Origin: Spirochaetaceae bacterium
GTDB taxonomy: Bacteria; Spirochaetota; Spirochaetia; DSM-2461
Length of the DNA stretch: 64,000 nucleotides
Direction: 5' to 3'
Assembly: GCA_051531975.1 (NCBI GenBank)
Contig: JAOPTT010000001.1
Location: forward strand, 1 to 64,000
The notes beneath the pieces were generated by a model. The model ran no database searches, had not been told where the DNA came from, and was given only the letters and a program-made list of their open reading frames with translations. This document shows positions 42,055 through 60,626 of this stretch, piece after piece; positions within the stretch are counted from its first letter, which is position 1; every line of letters starts with the position of its first letter. A program made the translations under genes and the position numbers.

Positions 42055-42116
42055 GGGGTAGTGGAAGCGAAGCTGTCACCAGGGGCCACGGGATTAGTGT
42101 CAACTAACTTTTATAG
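42055..42116 (+). repeat. Left terminal inverted repeat of the Tn3-family element
   Basis: Reverse complement of 44994-45055 with 4 mismatches in 62 bp; contains the tnpA stop codon. Confidence 0.93.
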
Positions 42117-44839
42117 GAATCCTTTTGTCCATGTTTAGATTGAAATTACTATAGGGATTTACATGCTGGTAAATGAGAGGTGTTAATGCCCTGTAATCTT
42201 CAATCTGCATTTTATTCTGCCAATCATTTTTGGATAGGACTTCCTGGATCATCAGTGTATTTATATAAACTAAGCAGTTTTGTAATAGATGTAATGAAAG
42301 AACTGACAGTTCCTGATCTTCAAGATTGTTACTCTGAATTTCTCCGGACTTTCCATAAAATATAAAACTATTCGCAGAATTCCAATTTTCAACAACATTT
42401 AATCCTTCATGAATTTCTATCCTTAGTTCTTCTGACATGAGATATTCACAAAGGAATATTGTTTTGACAACTTTCCCTAACTCCTGGAGAGCTTTGTATG
42501 TTGGATGTTGAAGATTGTTTCTGGTAAACCTCTTCATTATTGCTTCTGTTTCAGCAGTGCCTAATCTAAGAGCAGTAGTATATTTAATCATTTGATCGTA
42601 TTGTTCTTTTATAATATTCCAGTCAATTTGTCGTGTAAGAACAGGTGTAATATTTGTAAGATCATTTCTAATAGAATTATTAGGAAGATACAGTTTTTGT
42701 CTGTTTATATTCTTGAATCTTGGCATTAATGAGAAATTCAGGAGATGCGAGAATGCAAAAGCAACTTCACTCTGTCCATGAGTATCTACATAATTTCTAT
42801 CAATATTCAATTTTGTACAGTGCCTCAAAACTCCTTCTATCATAGATGCGACTTCTGAAGATGAGCAGCTTTTTAATTGGGAATATATACATGTTGAGTT
42901 CTTTTCAACATGCCAGTAAATCATCAAAAGTCTCAGAACTATTACTTGCCTTGGCAATCCTTTTAAGTCCAGTATTTGTTCCGAGTCCATATAAAGTAAT
43001 TAACAATCTTCTTTGTATGTTTTCCCGATCAAGAGTTTCTCTTACCGCCGTTGATTTAAAATTATCTGTAAAACTAGTGTAATAATCCGTTTCTTTGAGA
43101 ATATCTAAAAGATTGATCATCGGCCACTTTCTCATTAATTCTGACTTCAATATTGATAAGTTCAATGGCTCATTCTGTGGATCTGACGGAGTAACAGAAA
43201 TCCGACCTCCTTTAAATGTTGTAATTTTAACCTTGGGATTTTTTGGAATATTATTATTTAATCTCTGTAATGCATCATCCATTTCATTTTTAAGTTTTTC
43301 AATAAAAATCATTGCATCATTTGGTTGTTTCAATGCCTCATAATATTCATCTCTTTTTATGTCAAAATCATCTGGTAAATCATCCTCTGGATTTCTATAC
43401 TTATCAGCTCCTGTTATCCAGACTTCTTTGCATCTCAGTTTTGCTCTAAGAGCTTGAAGAACACATATCTCATAATTAAATCGTTCAATTACATCTTTTC
43501 CATGTTCATTTTTCTGAATTATAGCACTTTTCCATTTTGACTTAATAATTCCAGAAATTGGGAAAGTATCATCAATTTGTAGATATCTTGCTGATGAGTC
43601 GATATTTTCTTTCACAATTTTTAATGCTTCAAGGACCGGTTTATGGATATCGTTATTTGATTTGAATTCAATAATATTTAGAAGTTTAGGAAGCATTCTT
43701 CGATAATGTCTTGAATAAGAATTTTTCATTACAGTACGCACTTTCCCTGTGAATGCGCTGTTATTCATTTTTAAATCTTGAATGAGATCTTGCAAGAGCT
43801 TTTTATTAAATGATGGATAAATTACATCTTTAATAATTCCTTCCGGATTTTCTATAGATAATTCAGCTATACCTTTTAAGATATTATATTTACCATGAAC
43901 TTTTTTAATTTCCTTAATTATTTCTCGTTCTACTTTTTTAACAGCCTTAGAATCGATCTTATGTATAATAGATATTAATAAATCAGCCAGGTTATCAGTA
44001 ATCTCCCTACCTCTTTCCCAGAAAAAGATAGCAAGAAGAGAATATCTGATTTCATCAGGATGTCGTTTTATTTCTCCTAATAATTCTGATGAAATTCTTT
44101 GTTTATATTCCTTCAATATTTTTTGCGGAATATCATCAAAAATATTTTCTGGTATTTTAAGATTTCTGATAACTTGAAGTTTTTTAACTTCGTCAAGAAT
44201 ACTTTCTAGGCCAATTCGTCCAGGATCACTTCTCAGTTTATTAAAAGTTATAATATCATCTGTATTATCATAATTTTCATATTGTGCAAATTCATGAATA
44301 AGGTGATCAATTAAATAAAGTGTTTCATCTGCCAATCGTTCTTTTATTGAAAGGAAAAGTCTTCTCTCATATTTTATCGTAGCGGAAGATGAAATTCTAT
44401 CCATTCTATCAGATGTTGGAGGCTCAAGTTTAAGTTCCCTGAGACGCTTTAAAGCTATTGTTGTAACAATTTCCTTTTTGTAGCAATTATTATTTTTATA
44501 AAGCCATTCGATAAGGTTTTCTGTATCTTGTAGAGTCATTTCTTTGAAATCAAAAAATTCTCTGATTTCAGCACGATGTCTTTTTATAGTTCTACTATTC
44601 CAGTCATATTGTTTAAAAATATCTATGGTAATATTGAGTTGTTTTGCAATAAAAAGAATGACCTGATGGGGAATTTCAAGCTGGTTTATTGGAAATCTTG
44701 CTTCTAATTTAAAAAACTTATACAAACAAGCAAAGCCCAATCTATTTGTGTCATTACTTTTTTTATATATGAATTCTAAATCAGATTTAATCAATGTAAA
44801 TAAATCTATCAGTTCATCAGTCTCCCAAACTCTTTTCAT
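42100..44839 (-). pseudogene. tnpA: Tn3-family transposase with internal deletion and frameshift at ~42920
   Basis: N-part MKRVWETDEL...NRLGFA...[11 protein letters not shown]...ETFDDL and C-part MIYWHVEK...[12 protein letters not shown]...GLNVVENWN lie in different frames; the usual intervening segment carrying the first DDE Asp is missing. Confidence 0.9.
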
Positions 44840-44993
44840 TACCGCCTCTTTATATGAATTATTTCCTTTAATAAGGAATAGCACATGATTAATATTTTTC
44901 TTTGGTCAAAGAGGTTCGAACTTCTTCAGCAGAGATATGCGTATAAATCTGTCAGAGCGGTATGTCTTCGTAGGTGATTGTAAATATCCTTTT

Positions 44994-45055
44994 CTATTAA
45001 AGTTAGTTTATACTAATTCCGTGGCCCCTGGTGACAGCTTCGCTTCCACTACCCC
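44994..45055 (-). repeat. Right terminal inverted repeat of the Tn3-family element
   Basis: ...CCGTGGCCCCTGGTGACAGCTTCGCTTCCACTACCCC. Confidence 0.93.
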
Positions 45056-45230
45056 TATTAACAATTATAGGAATAAAAAAAATTATTACATATATTTACA
45101 CATTATTTATTAAAAAATAAATAAACTTTGGGAAAAATTTAAATACATAAAAAATGGTCTAGTTCTAACTTCTTATTGTAGGTATTCTGTCTAGTGCTTA
45201 ACGTTTGTGTAGGTAAAAATGATATTTATT

Positions 45231-46571
45231 TTATGAATACTTTTTATTTTCAATCACTTCTAGAAAATCATTAATTGTTTCAAACCTATTTATATTCTGT
45301 ACTAGAATGGTATAAAAAACCCATACAACATGTAAAAACTCATCTAAAACCTCCATTTGGTCAATTGGTTGCTTTCCATGGTGTACATATCTTGAACGTA
45401 ATCCATATATCTTTTTTATAAGTTTAACAATTTTTACTCTTTCATCAGCTGTATTACCAACAATAAATGCTATTCGTTCAGATATATTTTGAGTTAATGG
45501 TTCTGTTTCATTTTTTATAATTAGACTTTCAAGACTAACAAGAACATATAGTAATTTATCATATATTTCTTTTTGTATTGTGTGTTTAGAGTAAATCTGT
45601 AGTGAATCGTATAACTTAGATTGATAATTATTTTTGTTTTCTATTCTTATTAAATCACTAAAGGATGATAAAGATGAATTTGTAAGATAATGTATAGTTT
45701 CATTTGCAATTGGGTCAACATTTACATTATTAACAATAGAAGTTTTATTGGAAACTAATTCTTGTGTATTTTTATCAATAATCAAAGTATGATTTACTTC
45801 TGATAATTTCCAAGAATTCAAATCTATATATGACTTTACAGTAATTTTTAAATTACTCATTGAAAATATTCTTAGAACCATAAATGCATCATTAATTTTA
45901 TCATATGCCATTTCCATAGCCTTATTTTTTTCTGCTTTGACTGAATATGCTGCAGCAATATAACCTTGATGATCTTTTTTAAATTTTTCAATATGATTTA
46001 AAATATTTTCATCTGATTTATCACTTTCTGAAAACCATTTGTCGATAATTGTTGGTGACATATTATATATTTGAATATTCCCTAATTTAAAGTTCGATTC
46101 AGTAAACATATTATGAATAGGTACAATAATCGTATACTCTTTTATTTCTTTTTCAAATAAATTATTCAGATATTCTAAATATGTTTCATTTGAGTTTGTT
46201 CTAATAGATATTTCTATCCAATCTTTATATATTTCAGTTAAATATTTAATGCTTAACAATTTATATTCAATCTCATTATTTAATTTTAATAAAATATTAA
46301 TTAAATCATTAAATGAATCTCTTAGTAATTGATATTTACAATTATCAAAAATAAAATAAAATCCAATTTCATTACCTAAATAATCTGAATATGAGATTTT
46401 TAATGATTGAATATCTTTAGCTGTTATTACCCCAGATACATAACAATCATTAGTTTTGGGTTTGGGTTTGGGTTTGGGATTGTTATCAATTGGTTCCATT
46501 TTAATTACTTCTATTTTTTGAGATATGTGTATTAATTTAGTATTATAATTATCAAGTGCTTTTGGGTGCAT
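45231..46571 (-). CDS. HEPN (ApeA-like) domain protein, putative RNase
   Basis: C-terminal LVSLESL...ISERIAF...IYGLRSRYVHHG contains the HEPN RxxxxH motif. Confidence 0.75.
   Translation of the reverse strand: MHPKALDNYNTKLIHISQKIEVIKMEPIDNNPKPKPKPKTNDCYVSGVITAKDIQSLKISYSDYLGNEIGFYFIFDNCKYQLLRDSFNDLINILLKLNNEIEYKLLSIKYLTEIYKDWIEISIRTNSNETYLEYLNNLFEKEIKEYTIIVPIHNMFTESNFKLGNIQIYNMSPTIIDKWFSESDKSDENILNHIEKFKKDHQGYIAAAYSVKAEKNKAMEMAYDKINDAFMVLRIFSMSNLKITVKSYIDLNSWKLSEVNHTLIIDKNTQELVSNKTSIVNNVNVDPIANETIHYLTNSSLSSFSDLIRIENKNNYQSKLYDSLQIYSKHTIQKEIYDKLLYVLVSLESLIIKNETEPLTQNISERIAFIVGNTADERVKIVKLIKKIYGLRSRYVHHGKQPIDQMEVLDEFLHVVWVFYTILVQNINRFETINDFLEVIENKKYS
46455..46478 (+). repeat. (TTTGGG)4 hexamer repeat encoding PKPKPKPK
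   Basis: Four exact copies, in frame in the HEPN gene. Confidence 0.9.
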
Positions 46572-46658
46572 GGTTTCTCCAATATATGTTTATTTAAATT
46601 GCTACGAGAAGGAATTTAAATTATTTGTTTTTATATAATCTAAAAAACCTTTAAACAA

Positions 46659-48341
46659 CTATGTTTTAGTATATTCATGGTATAACTTTTTTTGAATTTC
46701 TTTATCTCCATAAAAAAATCTTTCTGCTGCTAGTTCATGTTTTTTCTCTTCAGAATAATTTAAAATATTTTGCTCTAATAATTTTCTAGCACTCCATGAT
46801 CCTAAATTCGCGATAGTGTTAATTTCATTATTAAATTTCTTTAAAGCATACTCTTCCCATTCTGGAAATTTTTTAATAATAACTAATGCATAATGACCTA
46901 AATAATCATGACTAACACTACAGTGTTCTGTAGGAAACATTTCACCAAGATTTAGCTCTTTTCTCAAGGAATTATAGTTTTTTAGTTCTGTAAGAATCTT
47001 TAGTTCAAATGACCATAATGATTTTAATTTTTCAATTGCTAAATGTACTTTAAAAGATTTATCATCTTGATAGTTACGTGTAAACTTTGTTACTGCTTCT
47101 AAAGTTAATAGGTCAATTTTTCTTAGAATATTTCTATTAGAAGAAGATAATATTTGTTCCCATGAAAACTCATCATACATGTATCTAGTTGATAAATGTT
47201 CAATTTTCCCTAAATTTAGTTTTTGTGAATTAGCAATACATAAGACTTTATTTATTCTTCTATATGTATCAGAAGCTAAAAGGATAACTTTCTTATTAGG
47301 ATCATTATCAGAAAAATTTAATGTTAATTCAATTAAATACTTAATAAATACTTTTAGATCATTTTTGTCTGTCTTTGGTAAATATTGGAATTTAATATTA
47401 TTTTGATCTGCTTTCATATAATATAATAGTGAATGACAAATATAATTAGCATTATAATCTCTTTCTAATCTTGGAAACATTTTATATGGTATGAAAAATA
47501 ATTCTTTATTTATTGATAGTTCAATTAATCTATTATTCATGCTATCTAGAGAAGGGTTTGTTGGAGTTATGAAATATAGAATATCTATAATATCATCAAG
47601 AGTTTCATTGCTTTTATCATTCCAATTATCTTGTTTTATTAAACCTTTTTGTTGGAAATTTTTTAATACAAGTGACCTTTTTGATAATAATTTATCTTTA
47701 ATCAAATCAGAAAATTCATTAACTCTTTGCTGGTTGAATTCCTTATCAAATGCTTTATCAAGAACTTTCAAAACTCTTCTTTTGTAGTAAAACCATGATT
47801 GTAATGGAGATAATAAGATTTGTAACATTTCAAATGATTCTAATAGATCAGAGATTTGTATATGTAGAACAGGTTCAGTAAGGCTTTCTTCCCTATCAAA
47901 GATTTCTAGTTTTTGACCATCGCAAAGCACAATTAAAACAGAATTAATATTAGGGTGTACAGAATATTCTACTGCTTGACTAAGATCTGCATACCTAAAG
48001 TTTTTAGGTTTAATTGGTTTTTTAGCCTCAATCAACCAAAAATTTTCCTCCCATAAGAGTATTGAATAATCAATATACTTGTTCTTTTTTCCTAAAAACT
48101 GGATATTCTTTTCTCTTTTTACTGATGAGTATGTACCATGTTTATACCCTAAATGTTTTATTATTGGATCAATTATTTCTGCTCTTACATCAGCTTCTGA
48201 AAACCCTTCGACATTAATAGTTTGAATAAATTTAATTTCTTCTATTTGTGATTCACTCAATGGCTCAGGTTTTTTATATGTAAGACTAAATTGTATTAAT
48301 TCCTTTAAGGTTCTTATCTCTTTCATTTCATAATTTTCCAT
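46659..48341 (-). CDS. Protein with an HsdR-N-like PD-(D/E)xK nuclease domain and a long uncharacterised C-terminus
   Basis: SEADVRAEIIDPIIKHLGY...IDY...WLIEAKK...QAVEYS...VLCDG. Confidence 0.72.
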   Translation of the reverse strand: MENYEMKEIRTLKELIQFSLTYKKPEPLSESQIEEIKFIQTINVEGFSEADVRAEIIDPIIKHLGYKHGTYSSVKREKNIQFLGKKNKYIDYSILLWEENFWLIEAKKPIKPKNFRYADLSQAVEYSVHPNINSVLIVLCDGQKLEIFDREESLTEPVLHIQISDLLESFEMLQILLSPLQSWFYYKRRVLKVLDKAFDKEFNQQRVNEFSDLIKDKLLSKRSLVLKNFQQKGLIKQDNWNDKSNETLDDIIDILYFITPTNPSLDSMNNRLIELSINKELFFIPYKMFPRLERDYNANYICHSLLYYMKADQNNIKFQYLPKTDKNDLKVFIKYLIELTLNFSDNDPNKKVILLASDTYRRINKVLCIANSQKLNLGKIEHLSTRYMYDEFSWEQILSSSNRNILRKIDLLTLEAVTKFTRNYQDDKSFKVHLAIEKLKSLWSFELKILTELKNYNSLRKELNLGEMFPTEHCSVSHDYLGHYALVIIKKFPEWEEYALKKFNNEINTIANLGSWSARKLLEQNILNYSEEKKHELAAERFFYGDKEIQKKLYHEYTKT

Positions 48342-48353
48342 CCCAATGTTTAG

Positions 48354-50135
48354 TTATATTTTAATTTTTTTATGTTTTATATTAAAATATTGGAGTATTT
48401 CATCTCCAAACTGATTATATTCATCTTTGTTCATATAAGAAGGATAGTTATAATTTTCATCTATAAAATCGACAAATTTAATTGTGCTATCATTTATAAT
48501 AGAATCGCAATATTTTTGTAAACAATCACTTAGACTTATATTACCTGTATAAATCTTGGAAAAGTCACTTATATTACATATTATTGGAGCATGATATTTT
48601 ATATCTTTAACAGATATTTCATTAACATATTCTTTATTATATTTATGTATTAACAAATTTAAAAAATTAATAGAAAGAGATGATTCTTGGGTTATCACTA
48701 AATTGTATATATTTTTAATTCCACTTAAAGTACTTGAATGATCTTCCCATAAGTCTTCTGAGATACCTTTAGAGATTTTTCCATTTAGATGTAATAATTG
48801 TAATGTTCCTTTTCTTTCATTTGGAGGTAATTTGTAATAGTCTTCTTCTCCAGGATAATATAATCCATATTTAGACAAAATTTTCATTAAAATTTCTTCA
48901 TTAAAATAAGATGATAATAATCTTATTGGTAAATACCCTGCCTTTATTTCAATAAAAATAAGGCTATCATCTATTTTTATAATTAAATCAGTTATTTCTT
49001 GGCCATCAGTATATTTATTATTTAACAAATTTAGTTTCAATTTATTCTTGAAAAAATCTTCTACTGATTTCTCGAAGCAATGCCCTAAAGCATTTGATCT
49101 TAGGTCTACATTTCTTTTTTGTTCTTTTAATTCTTTATTATTTAGAAATTTATCCTCTAAATCTAGAAAAGTATTTCTAAAACATCGTTCAATAAGAATT
49201 CCTACATCTAAAATTCTATATTTGTCTTTTGATAATTTTTCTATAGGATGACACCATACAGAATAGTTATTATTTAATTGTAATTTATCTATATTTGAGA
49301 CAGTTAAATTTAAATCAAACGATTCAAAAAATGTCCTTAAATGAGTAATAAGTGTAGTACTATCATCTTTGAATTCATTAAAATCAGAGTTTAAATCGAT
49401 AATATTACTATAATCATTGGCTTTATATCTAATAATTAAACATAAATTTAAGATATAACAAGTTTTTATTTTATCTAGAATATGTATTCCAGTTTCTGAA
49501 AATAAGAGCTCATTTGCTTGCTTTCCTTCTGCTGTTTCCAAAATATCAACCATCAAATAATAATTTCTTTTAATTTCTGACAAAATTATTTTTGACTTTT
49601 CTAAATGAAAATTCGATCTAAAAAGATCCGTGAGAAGTTTTAATATATTTTCAATTGATAAATCACCATTATATTCACCATCTGTTGAAACATCCTCAAA
49701 ACAATTAATCTTAGATAACTCCTTATGTAATTGACTTATATCTATAAGTTTTTTATCAGTTTTAGATTCTACAAAACTGTTTTTCAGAATAAATAATAAG
49801 TTTTGTCTAGTTACTATAGTTGCTAATCCGTATTCTCTTTTATATTTAGAATATAGAGAACCAAATGATTTACGGCTAGTTTCATCTAGTAAATTATAAT
49901 AAAGTTGAGGATCACTTAACTGAGAGTAATAATTTAATTTAGCTAAGTATTCAATGATTGTATCACGTAATAAAGAGGGATTATAATTCTCTACAATTTC
50001 TAATAATGGTTGTTCGATATTGGATGGTGGTGATATTCCTTCATATAAATCTGTATATGCTAGCCTAGTTATTAACATTGTACTCATACAGTATCTCCTT
50101 TTAAAGATGTAACTATTAAATATAAACCTTAGCAT
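48354..50135 (-). CDS. Hypothetical protein with a C-terminal PD-(D/E)xK (NERD-like) domain; start may be the internal MSTML after a GGAG RBS
   Basis: GHCFEKSV...EITDLII...LIFIEIKAG nuclease-like motif. Confidence 0.6.
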   Translation of the reverse strand: MLRFIFNSYIFKRRYCMSTMLITRLAYTDLYEGISPPSNIEQPLLEIVENYNPSLLRDTIIEYLAKLNYYSQLSDPQLYYNLLDETSRKSFGSLYSKYKREYGLATIVTRQNLLFILKNSFVESKTDKKLIDISQLHKELSKINCFEDVSTDGEYNGDLSIENILKLLTDLFRSNFHLEKSKIILSEIKRNYYLMVDILETAEGKQANELLFSETGIHILDKIKTCYILNLCLIIRYKANDYSNIIDLNSDFNEFKDDSTTLITHLRTFFESFDLNLTVSNIDKLQLNNNYSVWCHPIEKLSKDKYRILDVGILIERCFRNTFLDLEDKFLNNKELKEQKRNVDLRSNALGHCFEKSVEDFFKNKLKLNLLNNKYTDGQEITDLIIKIDDSLIFIEIKAGYLPIRLLSSYFNEEILMKILSKYGLYYPGEEDYYKLPPNERKGTLQLLHLNGKISKGISEDLWEDHSSTLSGIKNIYNLVITQESSLSINFLNLLIHKYNKEYVNEISVKDIKYHAPIICNISDFSKIYTGNISLSDCLQKYCDSIINDSTIKFVDFIDENYNYPSYMNKDEYNQFGDEILQYFNIKHKKIKI

Positions 50136-50184
50136 ATAAATAATATTTAATTTGTATAGATTAGACTTCTATTTCGTTTTGCTA

Positions 50185-52674
50185 CTAGTAAATCTTTTTA
50201 GTTACTAATTGTAAATTAAATTCTTTTTTCTTTTTAGTTTGATATAATTCAATCGGAGGTAAAAATACAGACCTAGTTTTATTTTTACTTTGAATTATTG
50301 GAAGTAATATTTTGATGTATTCATCTGGAAACTTGTAACCAAGCGTAATTTTTGTAATATAAGCCCCAATTAATTTATTTTTTTCATTTGGTTTCAGTGG
50401 ATAATTATAATTGATTTTAGGATTACTAGGCTTGTATGCAAAGAGCCTATATTCATTTTCATATTTCCATGAATTATGTTTAACAAAAATTCCAGCATCA
50501 AATAGACCATATTCTTCAATTATTTTATTCTTATCAATATGGGGTGACACATATTTTACATTATTCCAACCAATATTATTTGGTAAAGATGTAATTTTAT
50601 ATGATATGCAAATACCATTGTGACTGTCTCCATAATGAGACCACATAAGAGTATTATTTTGTTCTGTTGTTAATGCGACAATACGAATATCTTTAGATTT
50701 TAATTTCCATAAATCATAATCTCCTTCATCAACCATTGTAGGTAAAGGTATATCCATTGGATCATTTAATTGATTTATTTCAGAAAAATATAGAAAATCA
50801 TTAGATATTGAATCAAGGATATTATTGTCAAACGCTTTAAATTTATGTAGTTCCCTATTTAATGTTGTAAAGCCAGATCCAATTCTATAAAAATCTTTAT
50901 ATTGAGTTTTTGTTATTGATTCAGATAGTTCTTCATATGATTGACTAATAGAATTTTCTAATGCCTCTAGTTCAACTTTTTCAATACCACGAGCTTTTAG
51001 TTTTTCTTTTTCAATATTTAATTTATTTTGTTCTCTAGTTAATCGACCTGTATCTAAAAATCCAAGCTTTAAGCTTTTTTCAATATATTCTTCTTCTAAT
51101 TTGTGGTTTTCTAAAATTCCATAACACACTCCTATATTATTTAAAGTTATAGGATTATTTGAATCATTTACTAATAATTTATCATATGTTTTAACAGCCT
51201 CTTCATACATATCTAGATCCATGAATGAACTTGCTAATCTATTCAAAAAATTAGTATCTTCTATATTATGATTTTTTGATATTTCAATAACCTTCTTATT
51301 TAATTCTGTACTTAATTTGTTTTCAATTTTATTTAATCTTTTATGTATTTCATCGTAACATTCTGACCTATAATCATTACCATCTAATAATTCTTTTGCT
51401 AATTTCTTAGCTTTAGATGTAGTGCTAAAGTTAATAGCCTCTTCAGAATATATGTTGTTGATAAAGTCTTTGGATATAACTATATCCTCAAGGTTTATTT
51501 CATTTATTTTTTTAATCTTTGAATTTATTTTATAAATAGATGCTTCAAGGTTTGCATTTAAATAAAAATATAAGCTATCTTTTATAATAGTATGATTTTT
51601 TTGAATATCTTCTTCTTTAGCAATATAGTAAGCAAAGCGACTATTCTTAATTGCATTATGATAATCATTCTGTTTCATATTTATTTTAGATTTAATAATA
51701 TATGCATATATAACTGAAATATTATCATATACATAGAAGCCAATATTTGTACTTTCTAGGATTTCATTTACAATATCAAGTGCTTTTATATTTTGATTAA
51801 GATTTTCAAGACAATCTGCAATTTGGTATCTATATTGACTAATTATTTTCTTTTGATGAATTCCTGTTTCTATACAGTTTTTTGCTAATTCATAATTATT
51901 ATTTCTATAATAATATTCATATTGATCACTATGAGAGAGGGTCTTTAAATATATATGAGCTTTTTCAATGTTGTTAATTTTTTCATAATATTTTAAATAT
52001 AACCTATTATAATTATAGCTAACATTTTTAGTTTCAATATGTTCTATATCTAGTATTATTTTCTTAGATATATCTAGGTTTTCTAAATAAATAGATATTT
52101 CAAGCAACTGCAATTTATGTCTTACTGTTGCAACATTGTCATTTATTAATTTTTGGTATTCTAGAGATAAAAATTCTAAATCAGCATTAGAATAATGTCT
52201 ATCTTCGATTTTATACAAAAATGGATTATCCATAAGATATTTAATTTTTCTTTCTAATAAATTATTATCTAAGTTTATAGCATCATTAATATACGTAAGA
52301 CCTTGAATTATATTACTTTCGATTTTGATTGTATAAACCCCTAAATAGAAGAGAGTAACTGAAGTTTTAGGGTTTAATTCTAATGAAGTGATTAAAAATT
52401 CTTTAATATCATTATGTGTATAATATGAATTTATACTATTTTGCAGCTGTTCACATGTTAGGGCTAATTGATAATAAACTAAAGATTCATTATTGCTATT
52501 CTCAAGTAAATTATTCAGAGATTCTAGTTTTTTTGATGATTGACCTGTAACATCAAATAAGAAATACCAAATATATTCTTTGTCTTTTAATATTAGGTTT
52601 TTATCATTTAGATTGAGTTTTACTTTATCATAATTCTTATCACGAAAATATTTATAAATATCTTTTTTTGCCAA
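50185..52674 (-). CDS. TPR-repeat protein fused to C-terminal DUF2971
   Basis: TPR-like helices (LNNIGVCYG); LYFS...NDPMD, LMWSHYGDSHNGICISY, K...WKYENEYR, ITLG. Confidence 0.8.
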   Translation of the reverse strand: MAKKDIYKYFRDKNYDKVKLNLNDKNLILKDKEYIWYFLFDVTGQSSKKLESLNNLLENSNNESLVYYQLALTCEQLQNSINSYYTHNDIKEFLITSLELNPKTSVTLFYLGVYTIKIESNIIQGLTYINDAINLDNNLLERKIKYLMDNPFLYKIEDRHYSNADLEFLSLEYQKLINDNVATVRHKLQLLEISIYLENLDISKKIILDIEHIETKNVSYNYNRLYLKYYEKINNIEKAHIYLKTLSHSDQYEYYYRNNNYELAKNCIETGIHQKKIISQYRYQIADCLENLNQNIKALDIVNEILESTNIGFYVYDNISVIYAYIIKSKINMKQNDYHNAIKNSRFAYYIAKEEDIQKNHTIIKDSLYFYLNANLEASIYKINSKIKKINEINLEDIVISKDFINNIYSEEAINFSTTSKAKKLAKELLDGNDYRSECYDEIHKRLNKIENKLSTELNKKVIEISKNHNIEDTNFLNRLASSFMDLDMYEEAVKTYDKLLVNDSNNPITLNNIGVCYGILENHKLEEEYIEKSLKLGFLDTGRLTREQNKLNIEKEKLKARGIEKVELEALENSISQSYEELSESITKTQYKDFYRIGSGFTTLNRELHKFKAFDNNILDSISNDFLYFSEINQLNDPMDIPLPTMVDEGDYDLWKLKSKDIRIVALTTEQNNTLMWSHYGDSHNGICISYKITSLPNNIGWNNVKYVSPHIDKNKIIEEYGLFDAGIFVKHNSWKYENEYRLFAYKPSNPKINYNYPLKPNEKNKLIGAYITKITLGYKFPDEYIKILLPIIQSKNKTRSVFLPPIELYQTKKKKEFNLQLVTKKIY

Positions 52675-52968: not shown

Positions 52969-53559
52969 CTAAGATTTAAGGAATTTATACAAAGTAGTCC
53001 GACTAATACCAACAGCACTAGCAACAACACTCTTTTGTTCCCCTAATGATAACAAAGCATTTATTTGTAATGCCTTTTGCTTTGTTATCTTTGTGGATCC
53101 TTTTGGCCTGCCAAGAATGACACCTCTCTCTTTAGCTCGTTGAATACCTAGCTTTGTTCTTTCACCTAACAGTTTAACTTCTCTTTTAGCTAAAGAGAGC
53201 TGCAGATCGAATATAAACTCTTCTTCTGCAGACATACCTTTCTTGATTGTTAGATTAGACATAACTACATAGATCTCAAGATCTTCTCTTACATCTGTTA
53301 TATGTCTTAGCAGCTTTAAACCATCCCTGGTGTTTCTACCTATCCTGGATATCTCTGTTACAACTATCTTTTTAACTTCAGGATTTATTATATGATCCCA
53401 GAGTTTCCGGTTCTCTAACTTGGTTTTAGATGCTGATACTTGCTCTAGAATAATGTCATTGAATTTCATATTCATCATCTCTTCGTATCGCTTAAAAAAA
53501 GTGCTATATTTATCTTTGTCCTGGTCTACAGAACTTACTCTACTGTATGCAATTATCAT
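52969..53559 (-). CDS. Small serine recombinase (resolvase/invertase family)
   Basis: MIIAYSRVSSVDQ catalytic Ser, EISRIGRN, ERTKLG...GRPKG, C-terminal HTH GISRTTLYKFL. Confidence 0.95.
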   Translation of the reverse strand: MIIAYSRVSSVDQDKDKYSTFFKRYEEMMNMKFNDIILEQVSASKTKLENRKLWDHIINPEVKKIVVTEISRIGRNTRDGLKLLRHITDVREDLEIYVVMSNLTIKKGMSAEEEFIFDLQLSLAKREVKLLGERTKLGIQRAKERGVILGRPKGSTKITKQKALQINALLSLGEQKSVVASAVGISRTTLYKFLKS

Positions 53560-53704
53560 ATGTTTTTAATTGTATAGCTGTTTTATTTACATGTATATTA
53601 CTATTTTGTTTAATTTAATCTCATGTCAGCTTATTTTTCTTACATGTTTCGGTGGTTTGACTCTGTTTGTTGTGTGTTCAGAAAAACGAACGATTATTTG
53701 GACA
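53560..53704 (-). promoter_or_regulatory. res-like site, copy A (putative crossover site 53675-53704 plus accessory sites)
   Basis: Minus strand TGTCCAAATAATCG-TT-CGTTTTTCTGAACA, an imperfect 14+2+14 palindrome ending 116 nt upstream of the resolvase ATG. Confidence 0.72.
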
Positions 53705-53763
53705 CTATTTATAAATAAAAAAGGCTATGTTCAGATAGCCTATAAATTAACTGATATTTTTTC

Positions 53764-53799
53764 ATAAGGATAAGGTCACCTGACCTACAAAGTAGGTCC
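53764..53799 (-). repeat. Conserved 36-bp hairpin element, copy A (3' end of module A)
   Basis: GGACCTACTTTGTAGGTCAGGTGACCTTATCCTTAT, 26/36 identical to 57430-57465. Confidence 0.5.
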
Positions 53800-53839
53800 A
53801 CAGTTATATTATGGTTTCTCTAGTTTTTAATATTGATAT

Positions 53840-54229
53840 TTATTTAAAATATTTCTTTCTTCTTAAGTTGTTTAAAAACAGTAATATAATAAAAACAATG
53901 AAATACTGAATATAGTTAATAATATAACCTTGACTTAACTCTTGCATTTTAAATTGATTAACTAACTTTGGAATCAATGCTAATAAAAGGTAAACAATGA
54001 TTGGGAGAATTCCGAATAGCTTCTTTTTAGAAACAGCAATTGCAGCTATCAGCAATAAGAGACCTAAACTAAATGATCTTACTTTAAAGAATAATGGCAT
54101 TGATTCAAAATAACTTGTAATTGGTTCAATTCCTAAATGAAACATAATAATCGTTGCTAAATTAGCAACAATATAAATCGAACTCATTATAAATAATAAC
54201 ACTATTGCTAGGCATGCTTTATTCCTCAT
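53840..54229 (-). CDS. Small 4-TM membrane protein, candidate immunity protein
   Basis: 129 aa, four hydrophobic helices, GGAG RBS; the immunity role is inferred from context. Confidence 0.65.
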   Translation of the reverse strand: MRNKACLAIVLLFIMSSIYIVANLATIIMFHLGIEPITSYFESMPLFFKVRSFSLGLLLLIAAIAVSKKKLFGILPIIVYLLLALIPKLVNQFKMQELSQGYIINYIQYFIVFIILLFLNNLRRKKYFK

Positions 54230-54449
54230 ATTTAATTTATTCTCCTATAAGACCAAATCCTTTAAACTTAGATTGATTTTCATCTTCAATTTTTGATTAG
54301 TACTTCTCACTTATTGGTGTTAGTTTTTCAATAGCAACTTCTTGAGATTCTATATTTTCATCATAATATTTATTACTACAATCATTCCCAGTTGCCGAAT
54401 CCAATCCGACTATTATTATTAATTGAACTTCATATGAAGTTTTTGTTTT

Positions 54450-54632
54450 TTATTTTTCTTTGGATTTATTTTTTTTAATATCAATAATAGATGTAATTAA
54501 TAAGCCAACTCCCAAAACAGCAAAAAAAATAGGTAAAGTATAATCTTTTAATTTAAAAATACTTATAGAAATAGCCGTTAATAATGCAACCTCTAATAAT
54601 ATTAGTAATATAATTCTATAAGCTTTCTTCAT
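54450..54632 (-). CDS. Small 2-TM protein, candidate immunity protein
   Basis: 60 aa; ATG overlaps the stop of an upstream headless frame (TAATG). Confidence 0.6.
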   Translation of the reverse strand: MKKAYRIILLILLEVALLTAISISIFKLKDYTLPIFFAVLGVGLLITSIIDIKKNKSKEK

Positions 54633-54746
54633 TATTTATTATTGAACCTCCTTTTCAATGATGATACTGCTTGTGTTAGGTATAATTTGTCCTTCAAGAA
54701 TCGTAATATTGGATCTACGGCACCAGCACCTGATAGATTCTTATTT

Positions 54747-55055
54747 TTAATCTGCAATTGCTGATAAACCCCGATTCATTTCTAAAGCTTTATTACATAA
54801 ATCAATTAAATTTGTAGTAATTAAATGCAAATTATTTTCTTTATAACTTTTTCCTAAAATCTGGATTTCATCTTTGAAAGTTTGTACTTCAGATGGTGTT
54901 ATATTCACATCTTCATAATATTCACTTAACTGAAGAAATATATTTAACTTAATTTCTTTTGCTTTTTGAATTAAATCATAGTGCTCATTGGAATTCATTC
55001 CAACTTGAACTTCTGGTTTTCCTTCGTTATCTAAAATAGCAATATCAAATGACAT
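54747..55055 (-). CDS. Small soluble acidic protein, candidate immunity protein
   Basis: 102 aa directly downstream of the Rhs-motif mini-ORF. Confidence 0.65.
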   Translation of the reverse strand: MSFDIAILDNEGKPEVQVGMNSNEHYDLIQKAKEIKLNIFLQLSEYYEDVNITPSEVQTFKDEIQILGKSYKENNLHLITTNLIDLCNKALEMNRGLSAIAD

Positions 55056-55094
55056 TTATTTTCTCACTTAGACTATATCTGCTGCCAATCATCA

Positions 55095-55184
55095 CTAAAT
55101 TTCCTCAATAAGTCCAGTAGGATCAATAAAATTAATAGGATTGTTTTCTATATATTTATCAAAGACGCAACCATACTTAATCAT
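55095..55184 (-). CDS. Unannotated 29-aa Rhs core-end mini-ORF (truncated Rhs tip), copy A
   Basis: MIKYGCVFDKYIENNPINFIDPTGLIEEI* contains the Y..NNP....DPxGL Rhs junction motif. Confidence 0.7.
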   Translation of the reverse strand: MIKYGCVFDKYIENNPINFIDPTGLIEEI

Positions 55185-55282
55185 TTAATATCTTAACCTT
55201 TTATTATTATCTGAGCTACCAATTTAAATTTATCAAGATTTAAATTCCGAGATGAGGTAGACAGAGTGATAATTATCGGAAG
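55185..55282 (-). repeat. Conserved ~98-nt leader of the Rhs mini-ORF, copy A
   Basis: About 88/99 identical by my alignment to 56759-56857 in inverted orientation. Confidence 0.9.
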
Positions 55283-55425
55283 TTAAGCTTCTCAATTGAA
55301 ATAAGACAATAGGATTGAGGGATATCCATTATTTAAATTAGAACATGTAGGGAAGAAAAGGATTCTATGGAATATTACCTTTGAAGGTAATGTGTTAGCT
55401 GATTCCAGAATATTAGGCATAGTTT

Positions 55426-56172
55426 TTATTCACTAATGTATTTTTCATTAATAATTACTCCTTGTCTAATTCCTATACTAATATTGTTTCCATTATCAAT
55501 TACATGACCAAAACTTTTTGTAGAGCCTATAAATTTACCTATGAATATGGATCTATTAGATTTAATAATTTCAGACCAAATTCCCGTAGTTACCATAAAG
55601 TCAGTATTATCTTCATTTAAATTAATAGATTCTAAAAAATCTTTTTTAAAGTTGATAAAATTTTTATTGTCAAAATTTGCAAATGGGTATATTTTATTGC
55701 CATTTAAATTGAGAAATAGCATTAGTAAATGTTTTAATGATTCTTCTCCTATTTTCTGAATAACTTTAGAAGAGTTATCATCTAATTGTAGTATCTCTAT
55801 ATCATTATTATTATACATAAATGATATAGAAATATTCTCTATAAGCGACAATGAAGATCTTGATTGTATTGGAATGTTAAGTAAATCATTATGAATATTG
55901 TTTAATTCATGAGGGATGTCATTTTCTTTTATATTTCTAGAAATATTTTCCATTGTTAAAGTATATTCTTTTTCATCATTTTCAATGATATTAACATTCC
56001 AACTGACTTTATGTTGTTCAAATGGATGTGTAAAAGGGGATATATTTAAACTAATGTAATACGCATCTTTTATAGATAATATATATGAGTTTTCGTGTGA
56101 ATCTCTTGTATTAAGTGTAGTACAAGATGAAATTACTAATATAAATATGGTTATAATATAACTTTTTCTCAT
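55426..56172 (-). CDS. Hypothetical lipoprotein
   Basis: MRKSYIITIFILVISSC lipobox; 248 aa. Confidence 0.7.
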   Translation of the reverse strand: MRKSYIITIFILVISSCTTLNTRDSHENSYILSIKDAYYISLNISPFTHPFEQHKVSWNVNIIENDEKEYTLTMENISRNIKENDIPHELNNIHNDLLNIPIQSRSSLSLIENISISFMYNNNDIEILQLDDNSSKVIQKIGEESLKHLLMLFLNLNGNKIYPFANFDNKNFINFKKDFLESINLNEDNTDFMVTTGIWSEIIKSNRSIFIGKFIGSTKSFGHVIDNGNNISIGIRQGVIINEKYISE

Positions 56173-56758
56173 TTACTTTTATTCCTTCATTAACCTACCC
56201 TGAGAAATAATTTAATATCAAAAATTCTGATGTGTTAGAACCTTAATAGGGTTGATCATGTTTATGTATTTTTTCTCACAAATCAATAAAAATTATTATA
56301 GCCCGTATAGTCTGCTCTGAATATACAAATAATTGCTTCTATTTTTTATTATATTCAAAATCGCATAATATAATGTAGCATCTATATATTGCGTTGAAGG
56401 CAATAAAGCTCCTTAAGATGAGTTTAAGTTTAACGTTGAAAGACTTGGACTTTAAGGAATTCAGTTTAAAGAAGTGTGTTCTAACGAATCTTAATCTTTA
56501 GGTTACTATAAAACAAAAAGTTTTAGCCTTACCCAGTAGAACAGAAGACTGGTTCTTTTGTGAAATTTTACCGAACTATTGACTTCGTTTATTGTCTTAA
56601 TTGCTAATCGTTTGGGTTATTTATACATAGGGCTGTTATACCTTCAACTAAACTAAGTTCACAACGAATAAACCGTATTCTGATCTTTCCCAAAGGGCAT
56701 TCCCTCGCTATGTGGGGTAATAGCTATACAACATACACATGCAGCAGTGAGACAGTTG

Positions 56759-56857
56759 CTTCCGATAATTATCATTCTGTCTACCTCTGATCGGAATTTA
56801 AACCTTGATAAATCTAATTAAGTAGCTCAGATAATAATTAAAGGTTAAGATATTAGA
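56759..56857 (+). repeat. Conserved ~99-nt leader of the Rhs mini-ORF, copy B
   Basis: CTTCCGATAATTATC...GTAGCTCAGATAATAATTAAAGGTTAAGATATTAGA. Confidence 0.9.
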
Positions 56858-56917
56858 ATGCTTAAATATGGTTGCATCTTGGATAAGTACATAGAAAATA
56901 ATCCGATTAACTATTAG
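56858..56917 (+). pseudogene. Rhs core-end mini-ORF, copy B (stops before DPxG)
   Basis: MLKYGCILDKYIENNPINY*. Confidence 0.65.
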
Positions 56918-56952
56918 ATTCATTTTAAGTTTTAGGCGCAGTACGCTAGGAG

Positions 56953-57387
56953 GTGAAAATGATACAACGACTGAATGTGAGTAATTTACTAGCTTTATTG
57001 ATGTTACTTTACTGTCTATTTATACCAACATTTAAATTAAATGCTTTGAACTTTGAGAAGGAAGCAATAGATAAGATTCATGTTGTATTTAGTAATGATT
57101 ATGAGAATGGTGAATCATATGAGTTTGATATAGAAGGATATGCCAAAGATGGATTTCTTTATATTCTAACGAAATCTAAGGAAACAGATTATTTACCATT
57201 AATGGAGTTAGATGAAGGTAGTTATATAATTAGTCTAATTTCTGAAGGTGAAATTATAGAAGTTTTTAGTTTAAAATTAATTGATACTTTTCATAGGAAA
57301 AGTAATAATATCTTTTATGAGAATCTTAATCTTACAAGCGTTTTGAGAAAGCATGTAATCAAAGTTTTGACAAATAAAAAACAATAA
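56953..57387 (+). CDS. Secreted or periplasmic hypothetical protein, candidate immunity protein
   Basis: AGGAG RBS, N-terminal hydrophobic signal, 144 aa. Confidence 0.65.
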   Translation: MKMIQRLNVSNLLALLMLLYCLFIPTFKLNALNFEKEAIDKIHVVFSNDYENGESYEFDIEGYAKDGFLYILTKSKETDYLPLMELDEGSYIISLISEGEIIEVFSLKLIDTFHRKSNNIFYENLNLTSVLRKHVIKVLTNKKQ

Positions 57388-57429
57388 TGATTTAATATAA
57401 CAATTTTACTATAAGAGTCCGGTGGAATA

Positions 57430-57465
57430 GAACCTACTCAATAGGTCAGTTAGCCTTGCCTTTAT
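57430..57465 (+). repeat. Conserved 36-bp hairpin element, copy B (3' end of module B)
   Basis: GAACCTACTCAATAGGTCAGTTAGCCTTGCCTTTAT. Confidence 0.5.
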
Positions 57466-57483
57466 AGCTTTGAATTAAGTTTA

Positions 57484-58020
57484 CTATCTAAATTGCAGTC
57501 TATATGGTTTATTTAAATCCTTAATATAATATTTGATTGATGTAATCCTATGATTTTTTATTATAAAACTTTTTGTTGTTTTTCTTTCTTTAATTGAATA
57601 CGACATACCTTCATTATTAAGTTTGTTTAGGATAAAATTCCAACTAGAATCTGTTGAAATATTAAATTCATCAATAAGAAAATCGAATTCAAAATCATCA
57701 TTTGTGTTATAGAATTGAAACATAACTGAACCTATTTTTTTAGTACCTTCTGGAACATAAAAATTTAATCTATAATCATCAAAGTAATAACCAATAGATT
57801 TTGGAATAGATTCAATTTCGTATCCAATATCAATTGATTTACAAACCTCTTCGATGTCAGAACCTAATAATATAGTCTTCTCTTGATAAGTAAAGTTCTC
57901 ACCTTCAACTTTAAAGTCATACTTTTCATTACAACTTACTGTTGAGATAAATACTATAGTAATTAATAATCCACCTAAAACTCTTTTTAATTCCACATAT
58001 AACTCCTTTATTTGGGACAA
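57484..58020 (-). CDS. Hypothetical lipoprotein (likely GTG start near 57996)
   Basis: AAGGAG RBS, then VELKRVLGGLLITIVFISTVSC lipobox. Confidence 0.65.
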   Translation of the reverse strand: MSQIKELYVELKRVLGGLLITIVFISTVSCNEKYDFKVEGENFTYQEKTILLGSDIEEVCKSIDIGYEIESIPKSIGYYFDDYRLNFYVPEGTKKIGSVMFQFYNTNDDFEFDFLIDEFNISTDSSWNFILNKLNNEGMSYSIKERKTTKSFIIKNHRITSIKYYIKDLNKPYRLQFR

Positions 58021-58084
58021 TCACTATTGTCATATTCTTTTAAACTTCTTTGGAAGATTCCTGTAGTAAAAATCTTTTATATTA

Positions 58085-59116
58085 TTAGTCTAGTATTCCA
58101 AATTCCTCATTATCCTCAGTAAGACTAATAGTCTCAGTAGACTTAAAATCATTATAGTACTTTTTATCAAATTCAATTTCAGGATTATTGCCTTCTTTAA
58201 TCCAGGTAATTTCACTCTCAAAAATATTATTTATATATTTATTTGCTTTTACTAGTTCTTTATTTAACTCTTTATTTATTCTTTTTAGTTTATCATCATT
58301 ATTACCATTCACTTTTACACCTGTAACTTTTTGCATAGATAATGTTAGAGCTGCAATTTCTTTATAGTATTCTTTTATTTTACTTTTGTTACTATAATTA
58401 CTTGCCATTAAATAACTTCTAGCAGAAAGTAAGAAAGCTCCTTTTTCATATAACAAATCACCTAAAGCAGATAGTAAAATTGGAGAATTATAAAACCCAA
58501 ATTTTAACATTCCAGAGATTCCTATAATTGCCTTATTTCGCTCCTTTGAGTCATATTTAATACCATTTGAAACATAAATATCTTTTAAATATGAATTAAA
58601 ACTATGTTCTTTAAAATAATCATAAGTTATAACATTTGTATAATTAGTTTTTACTGAGAGAATATATTCGATAAGAAATATTTGGAATTGTTCTCTCCCA
58701 AAATGCGCATCAGGATTAATCTTTATTGATTCTTTTAGATACTTTAAACCTTCTTTTAATTGACCAGAATGTATATATATAGTCCCTAAGTTAGCTAAGG
58801 TTTCATATCTATTATTATAATCTATTAGTTGTTTATTTTGTAAATTTAGAGCTAATTGACTCTTCCCAACTTTATCATATGCAATGGCTAAATCATCTAT
58901 ATCATGCTGTGTATAAATCCCTGAACCAATTTTCTTTTTCCTATCATTAATTCTCCATTCATAAAATTCTGTAGAATGTCTTAAGAATTGTCCTGTTATA
59001 AGTTCTTGTAAACCTGGGAATGTTTGCTTTTCCATTTTAATTGTATCGTAATCCCAAGCACATGAGAAAATATTCATGGCTTTGAATAACAGTGTAATAA
59101 TCATAATTTTTTTCAT
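58085..59116 (-). CDS. Exported TPR-containing protein
   Basis: Signal peptide then CAWDYDT; TPR motifs DDLAIAYDKVG, YETLANLGTIYIH, INPDAHFGRE. Confidence 0.75.
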   Translation of the reverse strand: MKKIMIITLLFKAMNIFSCAWDYDTIKMEKQTFPGLQELITGQFLRHSTEFYEWRINDRKKKIGSGIYTQHDIDDLAIAYDKVGKSQLALNLQNKQLIDYNNRYETLANLGTIYIHSGQLKEGLKYLKESIKINPDAHFGREQFQIFLIEYILSVKTNYTNVITYDYFKEHSFNSYLKDIYVSNGIKYDSKERNKAIIGISGMLKFGFYNSPILLSALGDLLYEKGAFLLSARSYLMASNYSNKSKIKEYYKEIAALTLSMQKVTGVKVNGNNDDKLKRINKELNKELVKANKYINNIFESEITWIKEGNNPEIEFDKKYYNDFKSTETISLTEDNEEFGILD

Positions 59117-59136
59117 ATTTTGATTATATATTGTAA

Positions 59137-59281
59137 TGTAAAATTAATCGTTCGTTTTTCTGAACACCGAACTCAATAAGTTCGGGAGACAATATATGTA
59201 ATAAAAAACAATTACTATAAGATTAAACTAAACAAAAATCTAATATACATGTAAATAAAACAGTTATACAATTAAAAACAT
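59137..59281 (+). promoter_or_regulatory. res-like site, copy B (inverted relative to copy A)
   Basis: TGTAAAATTAATCG-TT-CGTTTTTCTGAACA; same 30-bp spacer length and same 116-nt distance to the ATG as copy A. Confidence 0.72.
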
Positions 59282-59380
59282 ATGATAATTGCATACAGTA
59301 GAGTAAGTTCTGTGGATAAAATACTAAAGATATATTTACATGGTAAATTTTATTTTGATTTTTATATGTATATTACTTAA
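59282..59380 (+). pseudogene. Truncated second copy of the serine resolvase
   Basis: MIIAYSRVSSVD is identical to the first 12 residues of 52969-53559, then unrelated sequence to TAA. Confidence 0.88.
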
Positions 59381-59516
59381 ACGAGACGCCTTCTTAGATA
59401 TTACTTAAAAAACTATATTATTTATTTTGTATATAACTAAGTATATTATCCAAAAACAGTTCTAAATGTGTGTATAAATACCGTCCATATTAATAGAATA
59501 TTATTAAGAGGTTATT

Positions 59517-59773
59517 ATGGCTACTAAAACTACATGAATAGAATTCAGGACAGATGTTAATAATAAAAAAATAATAGAAAAGCTGCAATACTAACCGGCC
59601 AAACATTATCATCATATATTTTGAATAAAACACTTGATTCTGCTAAAAAAGATATTGAAGAAATTGAATCTCTTCATTTAGCTGATAAAGATAGAGATGT
59701 CTTTTATTCTTTAATAACTAATCCTCCTGCTCAAAATGAAAATCTTAAAAATTTATTTAATTTAGAACTGTAA
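59517..59773 (+). pseudogene. DUF1778 (TacA/AtaR-type) antitoxin pseudogene
   Basis: MATKTT*IEFRTD..K.IIE/AAILTGQTLSSYIL...LHLADKDRDVFYSLITNPPAQNENLK; in-frame TGA plus a frameshift. Confidence 0.8.
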
Positions 59774-59775
59774 TA

Positions 59776-59978
59776 ATGCCATTAAATATAGAAATTGTAC
59801 CTGTATCTAAAAAGCTTAGAGCTATTAGGATTTCTTCTGATGTTGCTATAAAATTTATTATTGTAGATGCTTGAATGAAAAATCTAAAGATTTTTATCTA
59901 AGATATGACTTTATAGCATTAGAAGATAATCCATTAATATTTGTTATTTCTATAGATACAATTAAAAATGCAATATAA
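59776..59978 (+). pseudogene. GNAT acetyltransferase toxin pseudogene (internal deletion plus frameshift)
   Basis: MPLNIEIVPVSKK joined to ...VAIKFIIVDA/NEKSKDFYLRYDF..LEDNPL, the C-terminus of TacT/AtaT-type toxins. Confidence 0.72.
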
Positions 59979-60459: not shown

Positions 60460-60626
60460 TATTAATGAAAATAATAATTAAAGCTAGAGATTATATTTAT
60501 TAACAGAATAACTATTACTTCTCTTCGTATATTTTTCTTTCATCAGAAAAATATAAATTGCTTGTTATCATAAATGATCTCCCTTAAATTTAATAAAGTA
60601 ACTACATATTTAAAAAGAGGATTATC

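Follow-up and report, generated by a model that had tools for sequence, protein, structure and literature searches.

The subject of this study is a 5.46-kb segment, bounded by two inverted crossover sites (A and B) beside the gene of a small serine recombinase, in a 64,000-nt stretch of a Spirochaetaceae genome (positions 1 to 64,000 of contig JAOPTT010000001.1, assembly GCA_051531975.1; this whole stretch is called the window here). Rather than an on/off switch, this layout is likely a side effect of the way in which two recombinases have built gene-swapping islands. The segment consists of two related arms, each comprising a dif-like site, a leader, unrelated cargo, a res site and a resolvase gene (an 11-codon remnant in the right arm), around a central module of 1.47 kb. 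The account that we regard as probable, judging from this sequence arrangement, is that the res sites became inverted when XerCD joined the related arms across the central module, with no inversion switch involved. Throughout, C1 is the contig that carries the window and C3, C5, C6, C8, C10, C17 and C22 are other contigs of the same genome (G000); coordinates are collected in Table 1.

Sites A and B and their res context

The preliminary description of the window had reported two inverted sites with a TT core and an identical resolvase-proximal arm, and this was confirmed, as the 32-mers around A and B are identical at 28 of 32 positions compared with a maximum of 23 (mean 19.3) in a doublet-shuffle control (n = 300; positions 54001-64000, both strands). 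Equally borne out were a spacer between site I and subsite II that is 30 bp long at both sites and unlike in sequence (8/15 and 4/15 in ungapped 15-nt windows), and an equal distance to the ATG (115 nt intervening at both, the A of the ATG being base 116). The assignment as a serine recombinase crossover site with a 2-bp core holds. Similarity was said to stop at the distal arm; identity beyond it indeed falls to 3-6/15, which is background, with the qualification that past the spacer the repeat resumes outward for 183 bp at 80% identity, covering subsites II and III and 11 recombinase codons. Likewise, a recombinase ATG does lie behind both sites, with an intact gene at A, but the one at B opens a truncated 32-aa copy.

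The protein encoded at 52969-53559 matches PF00239 (61.7 bits) and PF02796, both over the cut-off, and its catalytic motif residues are kept across 10 aligned sequences. Its nearest relatives by sequence in the PDB are Sin/bin3 and Tn3 resolvase, all remote, and its best NCBIfam match is the Mpi family NF009949, where its 74.8 bits fall far short of the cut-off of 272. The subfamily is narrow and distant (just 9 proteins at E<=1e-20), and one 79% homolog, P0003, bears the source name of a plasmid recombinase of Thiospirochaeta perfilievii. Blocks with TGT...ACA ends recur at offsets of 46 and 99 bp (+/-1) relative to the core in five of eight compared sites (A, B, C10_L, C3_L and the site on contig C2 of a relative, G001), and on this pattern A and B are each predicted to be site I of a full three-subsite res of the Tn3 type (~120-134 bp), with subsite III nearest the gene. 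The scan behind the promoter-like match that overlaps subsite III was uninformative (34 matches vs 47.7 expected).

Dif-like sites within the segment

The preliminary description had overlooked two inverted dif-like sites inside the segment, which explain its symmetry. Left and right arms match in just two places, namely the dif-like site with the leader (152 bp, 87.5%) and the 183-bp stretch of res and recombinase start, and the right-arm cargo has no similarity to that of the left arm. The 28-bp dif-like motif occurs in two copies in each of three segments of the genome bounded by site-I pairs, and its arms match a single-copy site at G000:C6:356277-356304 with the spacer TATATA. This C6 site lies 32 kb from the maximum of the contig's cumulative GC skew, where the plateau is broad, and its pattern recurs in most of the other genomes searched within the order (27 of 37), usually as a single copy with the spacer TATATA or TGTATA (1 match over 38 genomes for a control pattern); it is likely the chromosomal dif of this genome. 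Contig C17 encodes two Xer-like proteins, which score 299 and 286 bits against the XerD model and stay under its cut-off; the one that was scanned exceeds the NF001399 cut-off. The arm names XerC and XerD are assumed here from likeness to known dif sites.

An iterated position weight matrix (PWM) added degenerate sites with the spacer TAGGTA at window position 45168 and at C10 267863-270055; this matrix was trained on its own hits and is thus partly circular, and a control on the reversed genome reached scores up to 21.0. The match between the sites at 45168 and C10:270055 holds independently of the matrix, with a local score of 47 (maximum 42 in 500 shuffles). Alternating inverse orientation was found on C1, at 45168(+), 55283(-) and 56758(+), and on C10, at 270055(+), 278433(-), 280445(+) and 286166(-), but fails on C3, where both sites are on the minus strand, and in direct arrays on C10. 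For six of the seven copies of site I in the genome, the closest dif-like site on the distal side has the strand of the site-I copy itself, the exception being C3_R; as the copies are related, this count does not amount to a statistical test.

The modules that reach from the TAGGTA to the TTATCA site on C1 (10.1 kb) and C10 (8.4 kb) have three matching stretches and no others: 34 nt at the TAGGTA site, 784 nt (87%) over the recombinase and its res as far as site I, and 27 nt at the TTATCA site. The intervals between these stretches are filled by unrelated defence-like genes and unrelated small ORFs. A tblastx comparison returned the recombinase only, and the C1 defence-like genes have no homology to C10 genes in the same position. 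The same module was not found elsewhere in five genomes; the scaffold recurs with other cargo.

Site I in the genome and in related genomes

A PWM search of the genome yielded six full copies of site I, with scores of 41.7-49.1 and a next best hit of 15.4, and BLAST added a seventh (C10_x), which has a 1-nt deletion and is without subsites II and III. Six of the seven copies are arranged as three inverted pairs that face outward, with 4.7-5.5 kb between the two members of each; only the C1 pair combines two full res with matching cores. The sole direct pair (C10_L with C10_x) includes the damaged site, and the genome has no intact direct pair. The recombinase paralog at C10_L is 94% identical in amino acids, with 45 synonymous and 11 non-synonymous codon changes; by its sequence, the recombinase is under purifying selection. 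C3_R and C10_L have a common inner flank of 300 bp (z 12.4), with subsites II and III and the gene at C10_L only and a bare site I at C3_R. Toxin-antitoxin (TA) genes follow each right-hand site (TacA-like, Gp49/helix-turn-helix and HEPN/nucleotidyltransferase). At C10:282055-282938, nothing but a nucleotidyltransferase/HEPN pair lies between two site-I copies that converge at a distance of 883 bp, and one of these copies is placed, as an operator might be, ~90 bp ahead of the first gene.

The conserved geometry that had been noted for A and B holds for them but is not special to the pair, since the distance from core to ATG is 131 bp on C10 and 132 bp at G001:C2. The latter, a 32.8-kb contig, carries a 79% ortholog, a ParA-like gene and one res with the core AC and the same spacing, and neither the PWM nor self-BLAST revealed a partner site on it. 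Because the same geometry occurs at this lone res, we read it as a trait of the resolvase family and do not take it as a sign of a partnership between A and B. An alignment search found a recombinase match in 1 of 37 other genomes of the order and in 1 of 400 in a phylum sample (the latter at 33% identity); the genome-contig search gave one locus only, with a broken gene, and G003 retains a degenerate site I only, its gene being deleted. In the collections searched, the recombinase family is rare. The strict site pattern was found in none of three genomes of the same genus. Metagenome and viral contigs searched with the protein yielded no relative, while the site pattern had no match in viral contigs and 11 in metagenomes, none of which had a recombinase homolog or similarity to this genome. 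Two metagenome contigs (L024:2230-2254 and L028:2182-2206) have a site-I-like site and downstream sequence in common and no recombinase homolog; this site is possibly another recombination site, or chance.

How the inverted res pair may have arisen

Dif modules alternate between C and D types, and matching spacers recombine to give inversions, deletions and cointegrates (PMC13141974; here and below, PMC sources are cited from partial text). In such a system, arms that share a TTATCA end could flank a module with inward XerC arms only in opposite orientation, so that the res sites they carry would be inverted. Small serine recombinase genes occur inside dif modules, chromosomes included (PMC12907356), and res recombines as direct repeats (PMC12217951, PMC2428073). 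The recombinase of the window would be an ordinary resolvase whose substrates are directly repeated sites. Two molecules with matching dif-like sites would first be fused there by XerCD, which would leave their two res as direct repeats; the resolvase would then resolve the fusion at site I and thereby exchange the cargo lying between that site and the dif-like site. Such an exchange would account for the end of homology at site I, and an exchange of arms at res site I is described for Tn3 elements (PMC7157771). Compatible direct pairs would be deleted and inverted pairs would persist. The preliminary description had offered cargo exchange at site I as its second option, and this fits in that homology between related loci ends there; the exchange itself is what we infer.

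A broader model is more doubtful, and we put it forward tentatively: marine spirochaetes might possess a two-recombinase scaffold for gene exchange in which TAGGTA, res and TTATCA fix two separately swapped slots, XerCD fuses and the resolvase resolves at site I, and back-to-back islands may flip. One slot would hold defence genes and the other immunity-like or membrane genes, and the scaffold would have no integrase of its own.

Several points weigh against our account of the layout. No recombination was observed, and all evidence comes from one genome, as no second genome with the whole layout was found in the collections searched (genome, metagenome and viral contigs; order and phylum samples). 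The C3 island is without a right-hand inverted dif-like site, so that one of three islands and one of seven sites do not fit; there is no closing dif-like site right of site B at a score >8; the TAGGTA sites have degenerate XerC arms; and the dif-like match on G001:C2 is weak, with 3 mismatches. In a four-way flank test the spacers gave a marginal result for 1 of 28 pairs (1/300 shuffles), while the signal was clear for inner flanks and for subsites II and III. Moreover, a common site I can be explained by binding constraint as well as by crossover.

Alternative explanations

The segment could be a dead relic of an old inverted duplication, or of rearrangement through the nearby Tn3-family element or homologous recombination, in which case neither of the site-specific systems shaped the cargo junctions. 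We consider this unlikely: the mirrored blocks are 12-20% diverged, and the right recombinase, the TA pair, the leaders and the transposase are all broken, as expected for a relic, but two independent comparisons (C1 left with right; C1 with C10) lose homology at the same site-specific sequences, the recombinase is under the purifying selection described above, and the transposase is bounded by ends of its own at a distance of 8.6 kb from site A.

It is improbable, too, that the 4.7-5.5-kb segments are non-autonomous cassettes exchanged whole by double crossover at inverted site I with a resolvase acting in trans. The three segments are of similar size, C3 has two near-perfect copies of site I without a recombinase gene in the vicinity, one gene at the same end is common to C1 and C3, and C3 and C10 share an inner flank, all of which would suit such cassettes. 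This explanation nevertheless needs intermolecular res recombination, which is disfavoured by the synapse (PMC12217951), one of the C10 cores mismatches, and the mirrored inner dif-like sites and leaders are left unexplained.

Least probable to us is a phase-variation switch, in which the recombinase would flip the 5.46-kb segment at a sufficient rate, either in the manner of the staphylococcal Bin or in trans on several pairs like Mpi. The phase-variable inversion proposed in the preliminary description found no support, in view of subsites II and III, the lone res without a partner on G001:C2 and the orientation of the assembled reads. Contigs of sequencing run X1, the one run that contains the DNA (~33x; 31-40x locally), span A (53547-53898), B (56826-59294) and the two dif-like sites, always in the orientation of the assembly. 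The displayed placements, outside of which lie 53 pieces and 35 loose ends, contain no joint. These contigs argue against a balanced mixture of orientations and against misassembly at A, B and the dif-like sites; X1 may be the source sample, and contigs cannot reveal rare forms, so that the search for mixed orientations that had been proposed returned a single one in a setting where rare inversion is invisible. Run X2 contributed one 167-nt contig outside the segment and no evidence on expression. An inversion would also switch little, given identical proximal arms and a promoter-like sequence common to both flanks: recombination between A and B would, as read from the sequence, rebuild the same site I at the cargo ends and shift whole genes between near-identical flanks. 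The change would be confined to the spacer and subsites ahead of the 343-aa gene, which has its ATG 20 bp from site B. That new spacer could alter expression of the gene, which would favour a switch, as do the matching TT cores, the two full res with an intact recombinase alongside, the three inverted pairs in one genome (the cores of the C10 pair, TT and TA, do not match) and the Mpi family as best NCBIfam match, although far under its cut-off. Inversion has reportedly been seen at the res of Tn2501 and with the beta recombinase. In staphylococci, Bin inverts between resL and resR (PMC3276174). Because the C1 pair alone has two full res with matching cores, and given the Bin precedent, the resolvase may at low frequency invert the 5.46-kb segment as a side reaction; of the two possible flips, that of the inner 1.47 kb by XerCD is more likely.

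Four further candidates were rejected. The transposase gene at 42055-45055 probably represents a separate insertion, presumably IS1071-like, with no resolvase inside and no clear target duplication, and a Tn3 transposon uniting tnpA with res and tnpR is ruled out by the repeats of tnpA itself, which exclude the recombinase. An integron cassette array or a cluster of attC sites lacking an integron integrase (CALIN) does not apply, as the attC family of the genome (C8, C22, C3 at ~197-205 kb, C5) is absent from the three segments, nor does insertion of a res-hunter (Tn552/Tn5053), as no transposase family was found among the scanned segment ORFs. The crossover sites of Hin/Gin/Mpi-type invertases are short and lack subsites II and III of the res type; by this criterion, the conserved subsites and the NF009949 score place the enzyme outside that class.

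Features of the window and cargo

Table 1 Features of the window and, in the last four rows, related features of this genome and others
Feature	Position	Strand	Remarks
Tn3-family transposase gene, two pieces	42055..45055	minus	own 65-bp GGGG-ended inverted repeats
Degenerate dif-like site	45168..45195	plus	spacer TAGGTA; far end of left module; 25/28 identical to C10:270055
Four defence-like genes (446, 560, 593, 829 aa)	45231..52674	minus	between TAGGTA site and recombinase
Small serine recombinase, tnpR-like	52969..53559	minus	196 aa; intact Y-S-R-V-S catalytic motif, C-terminal helix-turn-helix (HTH)
Promoter-like TATACA-17-TACAAT	53597-53569	minus	overlaps res A subsite III; from consensus scan only
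res A, putative subsite III	53571..53591	minus	limits inferred from TGT...ACA ends; conserved in register
res A, putative subsite II	53607..53644	minus	centre ~64 bp from site I centre; limits inferred
res A, site I	53675-53704	minus	TGTCCAAATAATCG-TT-CGTTTTTCTGAACA; 14-2-14; core TT 53689-53690
Terminator-like hairpin	53722..53741	minus	between left cargo and site A; weak (2 found, 1.5 expected in shuffles)
Left-arm cargo	53840..55055	minus	129-aa membrane ORF, split membrane ORF 54297-54635, 102-aa ORF
Left leader	55132..55255	minus	~120 bp on XerD side; ATG into NPINFIDPTG motif, stop
Left dif-like site	55256..55283	minus	ACTTCCGATAA-TTATCA-CTCTGTCTACC; XerC arm inward
Central C-type module	55284..56757		1.47 kb; 248-aa ORF 55426-56172 (minus), no family
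Right dif-like site	56758..56785	plus	GCTTCCGATAA-TTATCA-TTCTGTCTACC; same spacer, inverted to left one
Right leader	56786..56910	plus	matches left leader, together with dif-like site
Right-arm cargo	56953..59116		144-aa ORF (plus), 178-aa ORF (minus), 343-aa TPR protein (minus)
res B, site I	59137-59166	plus	TGTAAAATTAATCG-TT-CGTTTTTCTGAACA; 14-2-14; core TT 59151-59152
res B, putative subsite II	59197-59234	plus	limits inferred
res B, putative subsite III	59250-59270	plus	limits inferred
Truncated recombinase copy	59282..59380	plus	32-aa ORF: 11 matching codons, then unrelated sequence
Broken TacA-like antitoxin and toxin remnant	59517..59978	plus	PF08681, 49.9 bits
Inverted site-I pair on C1 (A and B)			5461 bp core to core; cores TT/TT; two full res
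Inverted site-I pair on C3			4803 bp; cores TT/TT; no recombinase gene nearby
Inverted site-I pair on C10			4730 bp; cores TT/TA; intact recombinase at C10_L
Dif-like arrays in G006, G042 and G011	L080:9713-12103, L081:8895-10235, L082:1236-10432, L083:6570-7754, L084:8364

The left-arm cargo has no Pfam or NCBIfam family over the cut-off, and its 129-aa membrane ORF has an 84% nucleotide homolog adjoining the left site of the C3 island. Among the defence-like genes, the 829-aa protein matches the PADLOC entry PDC-S31 (E 4e-27) and the 560-aa protein has a weak restriction endonuclease match, with none for the 446- and 593-aa proteins; overall, 4 of 16 proteins scanned across the C1 and C10 modules have a PADLOC match. 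The toxin beside the TacA-like antitoxin is presumably of the GNAT/TacT type. An unbroken TacA-like/toxin pair, 90% identical, is present on C3 near 194.8-195.5 kb, within an island (G000:C3:194779-206286) that holds this copy of the window's TA pair, two attC and a 3' fragment of the same recombinase.

The leader motif NPINFIDPTG is one that we take to be Rhs-core-like. A leader with ATG and NPINFIDP stands on the XerD side of four dif-like sites, also at C3:109173-109310 and C10:287077-287211; the C10 leader continues in frame into a 194-aa ORF, whereas the window leaders stop early, and the leader may serve to express orphan toxin tips. The C3 island (L001:7240-7316 and 13478-13555; G000:C3:106239-112554) is flanked by a 78-bp direct repeat (92%), which is the duplicated start of a downstream 291-aa gene; no integrase lies nearby, and the island includes an NTF2-fold immunity gene (PF15631).

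At C10:266089-270082 there are five same-strand TAGGTA dif-like sites, four with degenerate XerC arms, with one to three small genes between sites in an integron-like manner. In G006, G042 and G011, too, single genes are separated by same-strand dif-like sites with varied spacers; these arrays lie apart from the chromosomal dif, and the stretches examined in the three genomes contain no serine recombinase. The Xer side of the system thus extends wider than this genome, and dif-like cassette arrays may, from their sequences, be common in this bacterial family.

Comparison with known systems

Both dif modules and res shuffling are already known, from Acinetobacter and Tn3, respectively, and the apparent joint scaffold in a spirochaete is the new side of our findings. 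A literature search, in which most subscription papers were outside coverage, returned no spirochaete dif modules and no joint dif-res three-site scaffold. If our reading is true, dif modules, best known for Acinetobacter resistance genes, also build chromosomal islands in free-living spirochaetes, and a res inside the module provides a second exchange point, which would allow an integron-like turnover of defence and immunity genes by host XerCD and a plasmid resolvase. It further cautions that inverted res pairs in assemblies need not mean phase-variation switches, and the A/B pair offers a natural substrate for probing the orientation strictness of a three-subsite resolvase.

The recombinase and its site resemble Tn3/gamma-delta-type resolvase-res systems, with a serine recombinase of ~196 aa that has an HTH and a res of ~134 bp. 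The order I-II-III with site III proximal to the gene is that of the Tn3 res (PMC7157771), the I-II spacing of ~6 helical turns falls in the range of 4-7 turns given for such systems (PMC12217951), and this group of known systems includes stand-alone plasmid and SGI1 resolution systems (PMC12217951, PMC7157771, PMC2428073). As in related Tn3-type elements, homology switches at site I. Unlike in those, the cores are TT, TA or AC depending on the copy, no tnpA is linked at site I and the sites stand head to head; TA genes lie outside site I here, while in the Tn3 family they are placed on the site-I side away from tnpR (PMC7157771).

With Hin/Gin and the Bacteroides Mpi, the window has in common inverted crossover sites, an asymmetric 2-bp core and several pairs per genome with one enzyme, and it differs from them in a score far under the Mpi cut-off and in an ortholog at a lone site. 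The staphylococcal Bin region with resL and resR is similar in that inverted res flank a segment, the recombinase genes lie outside it and a resolvase-type enzyme can invert it, and it was formed by insertion of the res-hunting Tn552 at the sin res site (PMC3276174). Here, by contrast, the segment has no transposase and a mirrored dif-like pair instead, and inversion was not seen.

Resolvase-mediated shuffling of plasmid segments was reportedly described by Kholodii in 2001. A close parallel is found in the dif (pdif) modules of Acinetobacter, which have the same 28-bp XerC-6bp-XerD sites that copy the arms of the host dif with other spacers (PMC13141974, PMC12907356). Further likenesses are an inverted pair with inward XerC arms and identical spacers, TA genes and a serine recombinase as cargo (the dif-ser module) and a chromosomal location. 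What differs is the spirochaete host, modules of 8-10 kb in which a res serves as a fixed point inside the module, a leader with an Rhs-core-like motif that is conserved on the XerD side, and direct-repeat arrays with degenerate XerC arms (C10 266089-270055). By sequence and analogy, the island would work like an Acinetobacter dif-module island that carries plasmid resolvase modules. DNA exchange between elements at res sites is also known from CinH-RS2 shuffling, in an account that treats exchange at res and dif modules as two distinct routes (PMC9501444); in this spirochaete, the two apparently meet in one scaffold.

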